From positions 14,479-78,478 of the forward strand of contig JAZDLN010000027.1 in assembly GCA_043801965.1 (NCBI GenBank): DNA of 64,000 nt. Direction: 5' to 3'. Source of the stretch: Candidatus Falkowbacteria bacterium. Lineage in GTDB: Bacteria; Patescibacteriota; Patescibacteriia; Patescibacteriales; UBA12075. This document shows positions 3,246-35,459 of this stretch, piece after piece. The position numbers and the translations under genes were made by a program. The notes under the pieces are model-generated. The model was given only the letters and a program-made list of their open reading frames with translations. It searched no databases and was not told where the DNA came from. Numbering within the stretch: the stretch's first letter is position 1; each line of letters opens with the position of its first letter.

Positions 3246-3311
3246 ACAAACAAAATTCCCCCGAAAAAACAGGGGATTTTTTATTGGATTTAAGCCGTTT
3301 TTCAGTGTTAA

Positions 3312-3386
3312 ATCCGCGTAGCTATCAGCGTATTATCCGCGGATAAACTATTTTTCGCGGAATTAACGCGGATTAATACGCGGATT
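3312..3386. promoter_or_regulatory. Array of CGCGGAT/ATCCGCG motifs including perfect palindrome TTATCCGCGGATAA
   Basis: atccgcg at 3312-3318. Perfect 14-nt palindrome at 3333-3346. Direct cgcgga(a/t)t copies start at 3356, 3367 and 3379 (11-12 bp phasing). One further copy lies at 3478-3485. Confidence 0.6.
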
Positions 3387-3417
3387 GGGCGCTTAAAATA
3401 ATATTGAAATTAATTTA

Positions 3418-3446
3418 TTGACTTTCGTTTTTTGTTCGTGTATAAT
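3418..3446 (+). promoter_or_regulatory. near-consensus sigma70-type promoter upstream of lexA
   Basis: TTGACT (3418-3423), 17-nt spacer, TATAAT (3441-3446). Confidence 0.7.
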
Positions 3447-3516
3447 AAAATCATTAGGCATGCTTGTGGATAAGTTACGCGGATAGAATTTAGACGACTT
3501 ATCTATATTAAAACTT

Positions 3517-3544
3517 CCATCCCGCCGGTCTTCGGGCGGGATGG
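3517..3544 (+). promoter_or_regulatory. GC-rich 10-bp hairpin in the lexA leader
   Basis: ccatcccgcc / ggcgggatgg perfect stem with loop ggtcttcg. It lies 36 nt upstream of the preferred lexA ATG and has no adjacent T-run. Confidence 0.55.
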
Positions 3545-3579
3545 TCCATAAACAATTTTTTAATATAAAAACAAAAAAT

Positions 3580-4191
3580 ATGGGAAAAAATTTAACCAAA
3601 AGACAAAGACAGATCATGGATTTCATAACCGAATTTACCGCCGAGAACGGTTTCGCGCCCAGTCTGCGGGAAATCGGCGAGCGGTTCGATCTTAATAGTC
3701 CGGCCACGGTACACGTTCATATCGAAAACCTTAAAAAGCGCGGTATGTTGAGGTCCGGTTATAACGAACCCCGTTCGATCGAGATCGTACCGGTCGACCT
3801 TAGCTGGACCCGGGCTCTGGAACTGCCGCTGGCCGGTCTTATTACGGCCGGCGAGCCGATCGAGGCCCTGGAGGAGCGGGAAACTATCGGCGTGCCGGCT
3901 GATTTCGTCAGGGACGAAGCCAATAGTTACGTTTTAAGGGTCAAGGGACAATCGATGATAGAGGAGGGAATATTGGACGGTGATTACGTGATCGTGGAGC
4001 GCAATCCTTCGCCTGCAAACGGCGACGTGGTCGTGGCTCTTTTAAACAACGCGTACGCCACGCTTAAGAAATTTTATCGGGAAACCAGCCGGATCAGGCT
4101 TCAGCCGGCGAATTCCGCCATGAAACCGATTTATGCCAAAGATCCGTTGATCCAGGGGGTGGTCAGAGGGGTAATCAGAAAATTCGCCTGA
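3580..4191 (+). CDS. lexA: LexA repressor (S24 self-cleaving)
   Basis: N-terminal wHTH (LTKRQRQIMDFI...GFAPSLREIG) and C-terminal S24 domain with Ser (VKGQSM) and Lys (ATLKKF) dyad contexts. Start moved from 3541 to the M giving the canonical N-terminus. Confidence 0.9.
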   Translation: MGKNLTKRQRQIMDFITEFTAENGFAPSLREIGERFDLNSPATVHVHIENLKKRGMLRSGYNEPRSIEIVPVDLSWTRALELPLAGLITAGEPIEALEERETIGVPADFVRDEANSYVLRVKGQSMIEEGILDGDYVIVERNPSPANGDVVVALLNNAYATLKKFYRETSRIRLQPANSAMKPIYAKDPLIQGVVRGVIRKFA

Positions 4192-9652: not shown

Positions 9653-10945
9653 TTGATGCATATAATTTCTCTGACAAAAACAGCCTTGAACGCCATGCGC
9701 GTGAATAAGGTCAGGACCAGCTTGACCGTTTTGGGCGTGGTGATCGGAATAGCGAGTGTTATCATAGTGTTTTCCGCTGGCGAAGGGATAAATAGACTGA
9801 TCATGGGCCAGATAGAGTCTTTCGGCGGTACGGACATGTTCGAGGTCGAAGTTAAGATCCCGAGCACGAAAAAAGGCGGGGCCAGCGAAACCCAAAGCGC
9901 TACGGCGATGGCCCAGGGCGTGCAGGTTACCACCCTTACTTTAGAGGACATGGAAGATATCATGAAACTTCCCAATGTAGCCGACGCCTATGGCGCCATA
10001 TTGAATCAGGAGCAGGTAAGTTATAATAATGAGATGAAGCAATCCATAATTTTCGGCGTAACGGAATCATTTATCCATCTCGATCGATCTGAAGTGGAAT
10101 TCGGCCGGTTTTTTACCGCAACCGAAGATAAGTCGCTCGCGCAGGTGGCTGTTCTGGGGTCGAAAATAACAGATAAATTATTCGGCGATTCCGATCCGAT
10201 CGGCAGGTCGGTTAAAATCGGAAAAACCAAATTCCGGATTATCGGCGTGATGGCGGAACGCGGGGCCATGATGGGTTTTGATTTTGACGATATCGTTTAT
10301 ATGCCGATCCGCACTCTGCAAAAGAAAGTCATGGGCATAAACCATATCCAGATGGCCATGTTTAAAGTCGACGATACGGACGAGATCGATGCTACCACCG
10401 AAGAAGCGCGTTATATTTTACGGGAAAACCATGACTTGCCTCATCCGGAAGGACCGCGCCAGGGATGGACCGACACCGGCCGAGACGATTTCCGGGTAAT
10501 AACAATGGTGGAATCCATGGAGATAATGTCTACCGTTACCGGGGCCATTACCCTGTTGCTATTGGCGATCGTGGCCATATCGTTGGTGGTCGGCGGCGTC
10601 GGTATCATGAATATAATGTATGTGGTCGTGACCGAAAGAACGGCCGAAATCGGCCTGCGTAAAGCCGTTGGTGCTAAATATTCGGATATTATGTGGCAAT
10701 TTCTGATCGAATCGATCACAATCACAATCGCCGGCGGCGTCATCGGTATCGCGGTCGGCGCCGCCATTTCCTATCTAATAGCCTATGGCGCTTCCGCCTA
10801 CGGTCTGGATTGGCATTTTGTCGTGCCGTTAAGAGGAATAATCACCGCTCTCGGGTTTGCCGCTTTCTTCGGCTTGGTTTTTGGTTTATATCCGGCGCGA
10901 AAAGCGGCTAGACTTACGCCAGTTGAAGCCTTGCGAGCGGAATAA
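9653..10945 (+). CDS. MacB-type ABC transporter permease (second paralog)
   Basis: Same architecture as the previous gene (ERTAEIGLRKAVGA...YPARKAARLTPVEALRAE). Confidence 0.9.
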   Translation: MMHIISLTKTALNAMRVNKVRTSLTVLGVVIGIASVIIVFSAGEGINRLIMGQIESFGGTDMFEVEVKIPSTKKGGASETQSATAMAQGVQVTTLTLEDMEDIMKLPNVADAYGAILNQEQVSYNNEMKQSIIFGVTESFIHLDRSEVEFGRFFTATEDKSLAQVAVLGSKITDKLFGDSDPIGRSVKIGKTKFRIIGVMAERGAMMGFDFDDIVYMPIRTLQKKVMGINHIQMAMFKVDDTDEIDATTEEARYILRENHDLPHPEGPRQGWTDTGRDDFRVITMVESMEIMSTVTGAITLLLLAIVAISLVVGGVGIMNIMYVVVTERTAEIGLRKAVGAKYSDIMWQFLIESITITIAGGVIGIAVGAAISYLIAYGASAYGLDWHFVVPLRGIITALGFAAFFGLVFGLYPARKAARLTPVEALRAE

Positions 10946-10965
10946 AGGATTGCCGATTGTCGATT

Positions 10966-11002
10966 AAATAAAAAAAGAACGGTGAATTTTTCACCGTTTT
11001 TA
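10966..11002. terminator. bidirectional rho-independent terminator between convergent genes
   Basis: A-run, aacggtga-atttt-tcaccgtt stem-loop, T-run. Confidence 0.75.
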
Positions 11003-11017
11003 GGTTGGTTTTTGTGG

Positions 11018-11248
11018 TTAACAAAGTTTCATAATTACATTTAAATCGACACTGGCGATAAGCGGCTCCTTCACGAGAACGTTGAGCCATTTAATTTCTT
11101 CTCCCGGGGGGACGCCGACCAAAAAGCCATGACATAAAGCATACTTTTCAAGAACAGTTAGTCCTTTGAATTTCAGTAGGTTCTCGGCGGCGGTTTCGCT
11201 GACACCATCTTTAAAGGCTACCAGTAATTCGCCCTTGGCATGGTCCAT
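11018..11248 (-). CDS. hypothetical protein
   Basis: 76-aa ORF with a divergent promoter region upstream. No family recognised. Confidence 0.5.
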   Translation of the reverse strand: MDHAKGELLVAFKDGVSETAAENLLKFKGLTVLEKYALCHGFLVGVPPGEEIKWLNVLVKEPLIASVDLNVIMKLC

Positions 11249-11311
11249 TATTTCCTCCTTCCCGTTTTTCTAGAATAAATATTAAAACAATATTATCACA
11301 ATATATTATTT

Positions 11312-11340
11312 TTGTCAATCAACGTGTTTTGTGGTATAAT
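11312..11340 (+). promoter_or_regulatory. sigma70-type promoter with extended -10
   Basis: TTGTCA, 17-nt spacer ending TGg, TATAAT. Confidence 0.65.
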
Positions 11341-11387
11341 TTGTTCATAAATATAAGTTAAATAATTCCAATTTAACAAAAACTTCA

Positions 11388-13337
11388 ATGTTCAAACTTT
11401 CCGGATCAAACCACGTAAATTTCGCCTCTATATTCAAAAAAGGTAAGAACATCTTAAACGAACTTCCGGCCGTAAAAAGACTGAATCGTTGGCAAAAAAT
11501 CAATAACTTTTTGAAATATTTAAGTATCGCGCTGATCTTGCTGTGCGCAATCGTTTTAATATTCTTTTCCGTCCATTTCGTCAATGTTAATTTAATATTA
11601 TCCCGGTATTTAACGGGCCATAAAAACGCCGTTAACGCGGCGTTGCTTTTGGGGAACGGTGATCACGAACAAGCTTTCCGGCTGGCTAAATTCGCGGCCA
11701 ATGATTTTAGCGAAAGCTTGGAAATAGCCGAGGAATATTCCGGTAGTTATCTTGTTAAAAAGACAAGATTTTTTTCCGGCCAACTAAACGATTTATTTTA
11801 TTTATTGGGCGCCGGAGAGCTTATGGCTCGGGCGATAGAGGGCGCGGCCGATTATCAGGCGATTTTGGGAGAGGCTCTGGGCGATCAAAAACTTTTCAGT
11901 ACGTCGGCTGTTATAGAGAGAACGGACATCCTTCAGCGTATCCATTCGTTCGAGCCCGACTTGAACGGCATCAGGGCCAATATCGATTTAGCCCTTTCTA
12001 AATTGGAAAAAATCGAATTTATCGGCGTTCTTTGGCTCATTAAGGATAAAACGGCCGACCTGGAAGTACGGCTGAAAGAGGTCCGGGATTATATTGACCG
12101 GGCCGCGCGGGTCTCCGGCACGATACCGCCGCTTCTTGGTTATCCGGAAGAAGCCAGATATCTTTTGGTTTTTGAGGACACCGGCGAGCTTTGGCCCACC
12201 GGAGGGCGGATGAAGAATTTCGGCGTATTAAGAATAAAGAACGGCGAAATTATAGATTTAAAGACTTATGGCGTTGAGGAGTTTAGCGCTTTGACAGATT
12301 CGCAAACCCCGGTTTCGGCGCCCGAATCTTTAAAACTCTACCGCCAGAACGGGCCCTGGACGATCAAGGACGCAAATTGGTCGCTTGATTGGCCTTCGGC
12401 CTCCGGCCAGATCATCGATTTTGTCGGAAATAATAAGTATTTGCGCGATCTTGGCTTTACTGGCGCGATAGCGGTTATGCCGCAGTTTTTATCGGACCTT
12501 CTGACCCTTAACGGCCCGATAAAAATAAATGATCGTGAATATGACGAAAGCGACATGGCGCTTCTGTTCAACCGGGAAAATAGTTACGATATCGGGCCGC
12601 TTGTCGTGTCACTGAGAAAGTCCATTGGAAACGGGTCTTTGGCCGGGATCAAGGAAGCTTATGACATTACCATTGAAAATCTGGAGAAAAAAAATATCCT
12701 GGTTAATTTTTTTAAAGAAGAGCTGGGGCGGGCGGTCGCGAGCAATAACTGGGACGGCGCGATCCAAAAAAACGCGTCTTCCGATTATTTGGCGGTAGTA
12801 GACACGAATTTGGGCGATGTCGGCGATCTAGTCATGAATCGCGGTATCGAATACCGGGTGGAAGAGAAAGAAAAAGGCCTTTATGCCGACTTATATTTAA
12901 ACTACGCGCATAACGGAAGCGAGGGGGAGTATGAAGGCTTAGTGCAGGTTTTTGTGCCCCTGGGAAGCCGATTTACGGAATTTACCGGTTTAGAGGACGG
13001 TACTGTCGTTACCCGCCAGGAAAGCAATTCCTGCGGTGGCGGTTTTGATAAAATGGTGCTGGCCGGTCTTTTTCGGGTTAAGCCGGGGGAGATAAAACAG
13101 GTGCATCTGTCTTATAAATTGCCCAGTTTTTTTAATTTGGAGCCGGGCGGCTATTATACCTTGCGGATACAAAAGCAACCGGGTAATCATACTAGACAAC
13201 TAACGGTTGACGTAAACCTGCTTAATAAGGTAAAATCATATAAACCAACGGGGTATGATAGTTATCGGGAAGGGGACGGCCGCATTAAGTGGCAAATGGA
13301 ATTTGATGCCGACAGGATATTCTTTGTCGGGTTATAA
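11388..13337 (+). CDS. DUF4012-like membrane-anchored envelope protein
   Basis: N-terminal TM plus a large extracytoplasmic domain. LLVFEDTGELWPTGGRMKNFGVLRIKNGEI resembles the DUF4012 signature (from memory). Confidence 0.72.
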   Translation: MFKLSGSNHVNFASIFKKGKNILNELPAVKRLNRWQKINNFLKYLSIALILLCAIVLIFFSVHFVNVNLILSRYLTGHKNAVNAALLLGNGDHEQAFRLAKFAANDFSESLEIAEEYSGSYLVKKTRFFSGQLNDLFYLLGAGELMARAIEGAADYQAILGEALGDQKLFSTSAVIERTDILQRIHSFEPDLNGIRANIDLALSKLEKIEFIGVLWLIKDKTADLEVRLKEVRDYIDRAARVSGTIPPLLGYPEEARYLLVFEDTGELWPTGGRMKNFGVLRIKNGEIIDLKTYGVEEFSALTDSQTPVSAPESLKLYRQNGPWTIKDANWSLDWPSASGQIIDFVGNNKYLRDLGFTGAIAVMPQFLSDLLTLNGPIKINDREYDESDMALLFNRENSYDIGPLVVSLRKSIGNGSLAGIKEAYDITIENLEKKNILVNFFKEELGRAVASNNWDGAIQKNASSDYLAVVDTNLGDVGDLVMNRGIEYRVEEKEKGLYADLYLNYAHNGSEGEYEGLVQVFVPLGSRFTEFTGLEDGTVVTRQESNSCGGGFDKMVLAGLFRVKPGEIKQVHLSYKLPSFFNLEPGGYYTLRIQKQPGNHTRQLTVDVNLLNKVKSYKPTGYDSYREGDGRIKWQMEFDADRIFFVGL

Positions 13338-35337: not shown

Positions 35338-35425
35338 TTTTGGTCGAAGGCGCCGCCCGCGCCCCACGTAAGGCTATTATTGAAATTAACATAATTGGCG
35401 GATTTTAAGGCGCTTGCCCCGGCTG

Positions 35426-35444
35426 CGCGGATATCCGCGGATAT
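35426..35444. promoter_or_regulatory. Overlapping perfect palindromes CGCGGATATCCGCG / ATATCCGCGGATAT, 16 nt upstream of the mraY ATG
   Basis: Read directly from the sequence. The core TATCCGCGGATA (35432-35443) is identical to the core at 3334-3345 upstream of lexA. Confidence 0.6.
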
Positions 35445-35459
35445 TATCGAACTAAAACT

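Follow-up and report, generated by a model that had tools for sequence, protein, structure and literature searches.

The lexA gene in the stretch of Candidatus Falkowbacteria DNA analysed here (64,000 nucleotides, hereafter the window) is preceded by a dense cluster of the heptamer CGCGGAT and its inverted form ATCCGCG. This raises the question whether the array is an operator through which LexA would regulate its own gene, the site of some other protein, or DNA that takes no part in the control of lexA. The coordinates given for the cluster in a preliminary description of this DNA all proved correct when checked on the letters of the window. The main features, including an insert whose delimitation is explained below, are as follows.

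3257-3285, plus strand: terminator (stem-loop and T-run) of the upstream gene of 133 aa; it forms the left flank of the insert and is kept in the sister species
3286-3412: insert of about 125-129 bp, forming one long imperfect hairpin, dyad centre near 3349
3312-3341, plus strand: left arm, three direct heptamers (ATCCGCG 3312, ATCAGCG 3324, ATCCGCG 3335; spacing 12 and 11 bp)
3312-3318: ATCCGCG
3333-3346: perfect 14-nt palindrome TTATCCGCGGATAA, in which the innermost heptamer of the left arm overlaps with an inverted copy
3356-3386, minus strand: right arm, three inverted heptamers (CGCGGAA 3356, CGCGGAT 3367, CGCGGAT 3379; spacing 11 and 12 bp)
3418-3446, plus strand: lexA promoter, TTGACT-17-TATAAT, nearly base-for-base conserved in relatives
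3580-4191, plus strand: lexA gene, with LexA_DNA_bind and Peptidase_S24 domains (Pfam)

The near-consensus promoter previously described at 3418-3446 agrees with the consensus at 11 of 12 positions, and neither a GAAC-N4-GTTC nor a CTGT-N8-ACAG box was found within 3246-3580, as had been claimed. The direct copies of CGCGGA(A/T)T reported at 3356, 3367 and 3379 are indeed present. Three features had been overlooked, namely the degenerate heptamer ATCAGCG at 3324, a direct repeat TTCG-N7-TTCG within the promoter spacer, and the fact that the spacing of the left arm (12, 11) mirrors that of the right arm (11, 12), the whole forming a 3+3 dyad. The 7-mer core is kept across the array; the 4-5 nt between the cores are A/T-rich and differ from one another. 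Tandem Repeats Finder reported the right arm as a repeat of period 12 with 2.8 copies (score 35). Over the whole window, the heptamer (ATCCGCG/CGCGGAT) occurs 29 times for 20.9 expected, an enrichment that is not significant. As for its clustering, six copies lie within 175 bp, for a maximum of three in 200 first-order Markov simulations, and neither the rest of the 64-kb window nor related loci totalling about 575 kb contained a second CGCGGAT cluster.

Relatives were retrieved by a LexA protein scan retaining one genome per species, which yielded 80 loci, all from the candidate phyla radiation (Patescibacteria). The nearest locus (L001) comes from a different genome, that of the sister species Candidatus Falkowbacteria RIFOXYA2_FULL_47_19. 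Identity to the window is 83-89% in the flanking DNA (BLAST), 92.5% in the lexA coding sequence, and 94.5% over the promoter together with the leader (127 nt, 3453-3580). The two LexA proteins differ solely at A186V, in the C-terminal domain, and their DNA-binding domains are identical. Both flanks of the array align well between the two species; the sister species lacks the whole array (about 129 bp, window positions ~3286-3412), its terminator abutting the -35 box, and the BLAST alignment is broken at 3285/3410. The sister LexA is present on 18 contigs, with the short spacer in three further aligned contigs and 13 more listed as similar.

The insert is likewise absent in L099-L101 and L104. 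In the latter (84% LexA identity), the promoter comes directly after the terminator, with no array, and the same terminator-then-promoter layout was recovered in relatives at 77-80% LexA identity. None of the 80 lexA upstream regions of relatives (400 bp each) contains a CGCGGAT array; CGCGGAT/ATCCGCG occurs in two of these 400-bp regions, each time as one copy more than 300 bp upstream. Since relatives have the terminator directly before the promoter, the state observed in the window is the derived one and corresponds to an insertion. The array represents a self-complementary insert, young and specific to this lineage, and lies outside the conserved control of lexA, which would rest on the direct-repeat box of the promoter spacer and a DnaA-box 9-mer, both described below. 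The preliminary description had suggested a lineage-specific LexA box, and had held that a lack of conservation upstream of lexA orthologues would speak against this. The array is absent at the 80 loci and, because it is wholly missing from a species whose LexA has the same DNA-binding domain, it is not the operator of LexA autoregulation. It is unsuited to defining the LexA motif or regulon in these bacteria, and the value of the finding is corrective.

The promoter and leader of lexA hold the following further features.

3423-3438, plus strand: candidate LexA operator TTTCG-N6-GTTCG, 11-bp period, in the promoter spacer between -35 and -10
3465-3473, minus strand: DnaA-box 9-mer, TTATCCACA on the minus strand, that is TGTGGATAA on the plus strand, in the lexA leader
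3478-3485, plus strand: leader copy CGCGGATA of the array motif; TGCGGATA in the sister species, absent in L104
3517-3544, plus strand: leader hairpin, with one compensatory change, C-G to T-A, relative to the sister species

The direct repeat at 3423-3438 belongs to a consensus, (G/T)TTCG-N6-GTTCG, that lies between -35 and -10 across loci. TTCG-N7-TTCG is present in 46 of the 80 lexA upstream regions (400 bp each) and GAAC-N4-GTTC in one of the 80. The copy at 3423-3438 is the sole exact match in the 64-kb window, and 13 further instances were found in 478 kb of loci, 11 of them also at lexA promoters and several of these being second, inverted copies (see below). No further SOS gene (recA, uvrA, translesion polymerases) was detected among the window ORFs scanned with Pfam. 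The direct-repeat box behaves at lexA promoters as expected of an autoregulatory LexA operator, which makes it a probable LexA box. According to a passage in PMC7739468, which cites Sanchez-Osuna 2017, the LexA of Patescibacteria is one of those that have come to recognise a direct-repeat motif. Judging from these sequence comparisons, (G/T)TTCG-N6-GTTCG in the promoter spacer is a candidate for, and probably represents, the LexA operator of Patescibacteria. The box at 3423-3438 is similar to known direct-repeat LexA boxes (GTTC-N7-GTTC of Alphaproteobacteria and the motif reported for Patescibacteria) in its 11-bp period and its overlap with the promoter, whereas the CGCGGAT array differs from them in sequence, position and conservation. 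A second, inverted copy of the direct repeat was observed just 3' of the -10 box in L052, L055, L058-L060, L064 and L066.

The perfect DnaA-box 9-mer (TTATCCACA/TGTGGATAA) was found in 57 of the 80 lexA upstream regions (400 bp each), with 64 copies in these 32 kb (0.24 expected) vs 18 in the other 445 kb. It occurs in two fixed arrangements, either as TGTGGATAA located 32-46 nt 3' of the start of the LexA box or as TTATCCACA located 20-24 nt 5' of it, and the flanks beyond the 9-mer are not conserved. The window contains two exact 9-mers, at 3465 and 57153. In the literature that we found, no DnaA box at a lexA promoter was reported. If the 9-mer is bound by DnaA, replication status would be linked to the SOS repressor in the reduced genomes of Patescibacteria.

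Between the window and the sister species, the lexA leader (3453-3580) shows a degree of conservation equal to or above that of the coding sequence. It folds as two hairpins (z = -3.4); in the first stem, the DnaA box is paired with ACTTATCTATA, an inverted and degenerate version of itself. The further copy of the array motif announced in the transcribed leader, CGCGGATA at 3478-3485, was recovered; a single transition (T-to-C vs the sister species) separates it from being no copy. Other long palindromic inserts were observed in the lexA leaders of L002, L006, L007 and L027 (for example GTCATTGCGAG...CTCGCAATGAC), and a run of GTAGGCTT tandem repeats takes the place of a palindromic insert in the leader of L004. 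The interval between promoter and lexA seems to be a hotspot of repeat insertion in these relatives.

The core of the palindrome recurs at a second locus of the window.

35426-35443: second locus, CGCGGATATCCGCGGATA, two 10-nt tandem units with three overlapping half-sites, 17 bp before the mraY ATG (35460)

As previously described, the window contains two copies of the 12-mer TATCCGCGGATA and no more, one at 3334 and the other at 35432, the latter directly upstream of mraY. The single recurrence stands; the chance expectation attached to it has to be corrected from 0.008 to about 0.004 (64000/4^12), because the 12-mer is a palindrome. The tandem units at mraY are GCGCGGATAT and CCGCGGATAT, and the palindrome arises at their junction. 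The gene order pilC, pilB, 139-aa ORF, mraY is kept in relatives. The spacer preceding mraY (35338-35459) measures 122 bp and is partly GC-rich in the window, vs 38 or 85 bp of A/T-rich sequence without the motif in relatives; L092, L093 and L095 have neither the motif nor the 122-bp GC-rich spacer. Since the spacers of relatives lack the motif, the mraY site is also lineage-specific. The folding of the mraY spacer was not significantly better than that of shuffled sequence (z = -0.4). The lexA insert and the mraY spacer have in common two separate 15-mers, TAWTATCCGCGGATA and TAWTATTGAAATTAA, each identical at 14 of 15 positions, and only one of 300 shuffles attained even one such score. These two modules differ in order between the two loci, so that the two segments are related without being collinear.

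The nature of the insert was considered in the light of its structure. Folded as RNA, 3286-3415 reaches -46.3 kcal/mol (z = -5.2; 0/200 shuffles as stable) and, folded as DNA, -24.9 kcal/mol (z = -3.4; 0/200 shuffles as stable). The hairpin pairs every heptamer of the left arm with one heptamer of the right arm, and the ends of the insert are symmetric about the hairpin centre, the outermost 10-15 nt pairing weakly. A possible target-site duplication, TTTATT/TTAATT, is 3-6 nt long, A/T-rich and imperfect. On account of its size, its hairpin form, its location between terminator and promoter and its presence/absence pattern, the best explanation appears to be that the array is a small palindromic intergenic repeat element, of the MITE/REPIN type, or a remnant of such an element, a reading to which we would give about an even chance.

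According to this explanation, a self-complementary element of about 125 bp would have entered the interval that separates the upstream gene's terminator from the -35 box of lexA. Its arms each carry three heptamers 11-12 bp apart, ATC(C/A)GCG on the left and inverted copies on the right, and the heptamers may be sites for its own transposase or recombinase, or for another protein distinct from LexA. A shorter, two-unit version of the motif would be present in the second lineage-specific spacer, before mraY. The effect of the insert on lexA expression would probably be small, because the sequence now located 5' of the -35 box is again A/T-rich; we infer both the mobility of the element and the near-neutrality of its insertion. 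The heptamers are probably recognition sites of a sequence-specific protein other than LexA, since the core is kept six to seven times with differing spacers and recurs in the second insert. The earlier idea of an operator array for an oligomerising DNA-binding protein may hold in its general form, for a protein other than LexA, given that the core is kept with differing spacers and recurs at mraY.

The insert resembles MITEs, REPINs and ERIC-like elements in its length (about 125 bp), in forming a hairpin as a whole unit, in its terminator-promoter site and in its absence from close relatives. Two of the properties expected of MITEs and REPINs, self-complementarity of the whole unit and presence/absence with an intact empty site, are observed. 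A third, the existence of several copies per genome, is not: no second full copy was found in the 64-kb window of the source genome or in about 575 kb of related loci. The insert further differs from these elements by its weak terminal inverted repeats and its ambiguous target duplication. The weakly pairing termini, the imperfect duplication and the lack of collinearity between the lexA and mraY segments speak against the reading as a palindromic element, and a Pfam scan of window ORFs revealed no transposase gene. The ends of Mu and Tn7, which carry several transposase sites, are nearer to the insert than a typical MITE, each arm of the insert consisting of three phased heptamers.

Further copies were searched for in other collections, the IMG/VR and JGI metagenome scans for the insert being based on restrictive patterns. 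The pattern TTATCCGCGGATAA-N5-15-CGCGGAWT gave one match in IMG/VR, inside a coding ORF, and one in the JGI metagenomes, on an unrelated GC-rich contig; we judged both to be due to chance. A triple-repeat pattern gave four matches in IMG/VR, all of them perfect 11-12 nt tandem repeats on unrelated contigs, which we considered coincidental. One viral repeat (L105, 2540-2600, IMG/VR contig 3300009183_003053) consists of four copies of TATAATCCGCG, one every 11 nt, and lies some 40 nt before the start of a gene. It combines the same heptamer and period as the lexA array on an unrelated contig and was judged a coincidence among tandem repeats. The 14-mer palindrome TTATCCGCGGATAA was found at 37 single sites, never more than one per contig, and the 18-mer of the mraY site had no viral match. 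BLAST of the whole insert against phage and plasmid collections gave no match. Rfam returned nothing at the gathering threshold and, at a permissive E-value, weak matches alone, all well below gathering thresholds.

Among the alternatives to a palindromic element, the one that survives best is that the array could be an operator at which some chromosomal regulator distinct from LexA, such as a response regulator binding 7+4 direct repeats or heptamers of either orientation, was newly recruited to co-control lexA and the cell-wall and division genes mraY-ftsW-murG. We consider this unlikely, albeit a serious contender. The short cores with a period of about 10-11 bp expected of a response-regulator operator are seen here, the heptamer cores being one helical turn apart (12, 11, 11, 12 bp) and separated by A/T-rich spacers of 4-5 nt. 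In addition, the identical 12-mer with an extra half-site is located directly 5' of mraY (chance about 0.004), the second module, TAWTATTGAAATTAA, is common to the lexA and mraY loci, and the T-to-C change makes an additional copy in the leader. However, neither the lexA site nor the mraY site is conserved in any relative, and they are placed differently, at about -35 to -140 from the inferred lexA transcription start vs 17 bp before the ATG of mraY. Just two loci were found in 64 kb. The Pfam scan of window ORFs detected no classical regulator, and none of the neighbouring genes is a candidate for a DNA-binding one, the response regulator next to the array having a receiver domain only. Like the array, the pho box (7+4 units) and the NarL heptamers combine a 7-nt core with 4-5 nt of A/T-rich spacer, repeat every 11-12 bp and occur in both orientations; the array differs from these operators in its full 3+3 dyad symmetry, in its lack of conservation and in that no cognate regulator was found.

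It is rather improbable that the insert is neutral DNA without binding function, derived from an 11-12 nt unit through slippage and inverted duplication, with a coincidental match at mraY. Such an origin would agree with the period-12 array reported by Tandem Repeats Finder, with the fact that the array is conserved nowhere, and with the unrelated viral contigs whose perfect 11-12 nt tandem repeats happen to include CGCGGAT. A recent duplication would nevertheless have kept the spacers as well as the 7-mer, and only the latter is kept. The clustering is also far above the Markov expectation, and the same 12-mer and a second common 15-mer are present in another intergenic insert.

In another alternative, favoured by the canonical DnaA box conserved at lexA promoters, the heptamers would be variant DnaA boxes forming two opposed arrays, and these would serve to bind DnaA, or a protein like it, or to titrate it. 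We regard this as very unlikely. The geometry and part of the sequence (xGxGGATAA) recall the DnaA-box arrays of origins, in which two opposed arrays of 9-mers are 2 bp apart: considered as 9-mers, the copies upstream of lexA are 2-3 bp apart in two facing arrays, CGCGGATAA is two transitions away from TGTGGATAA, and a true box is nearby, the leader copy lying 13 bp (start to start) from it in the same orientation. The best copy, TTATCCGCG, matches TTATCCACA at 7 of 9 positions, but the other copies match at 4-6 of 9 only, and the comparison of the array 9-mers with TTATNCACA gave the same values (best 7/9, others 4-6/9). The ACA positions are nearly universal in DnaA boxes. In the lexA array, GCG replaces ACA in every copy. 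Moreover, some relatives keep the canonical box without any array, and the locus does not correspond to an origin: GC skew, positive over nearly the whole window, shows no switch at the array, the Pfam scan of window ORFs revealed no dnaA gene, and the context of an origin (GC-skew switch, dnaA/dnaN nearby) was not observed. The related proposal that the opposed heptamer arrays, at lexA and at mraY, might serve as an oligomerisation platform for DnaA or a DnaA-like initiator reading a transition variant of the DnaA box, YGYGGATAA, has a very slight probability. If it were true, the SOS repressor and the genes of cell wall and division would both be coupled to the status of the replication initiator in this lineage of the candidate phyla radiation.

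The weakest alternative, a lineage-specific LexA operator, may be invoked because the array lies upstream of lexA and neither classical type of SOS box is present, but it is largely refuted and has hardly any probability left, since the array (3312-3386) is entirely upstream of the -35 box (which starts at 3418) and neither overlaps nor abuts the core promoter, is missing in the sister species with its identical LexA DNA-binding domain and at the 79 other lexA loci, and leaves the promoter spacer to the conserved direct repeat, which fits the passage in PMC7739468.

A further difference from relatives was observed elsewhere in the window, at 10945-11388, between an FtsX-like permease gene and a DUF4012 gene, where relatives with an identical MreB (L081, 2983-8039) have, in contrast to the window, a lipase-like gene of 1248 aa and two small ORFs.
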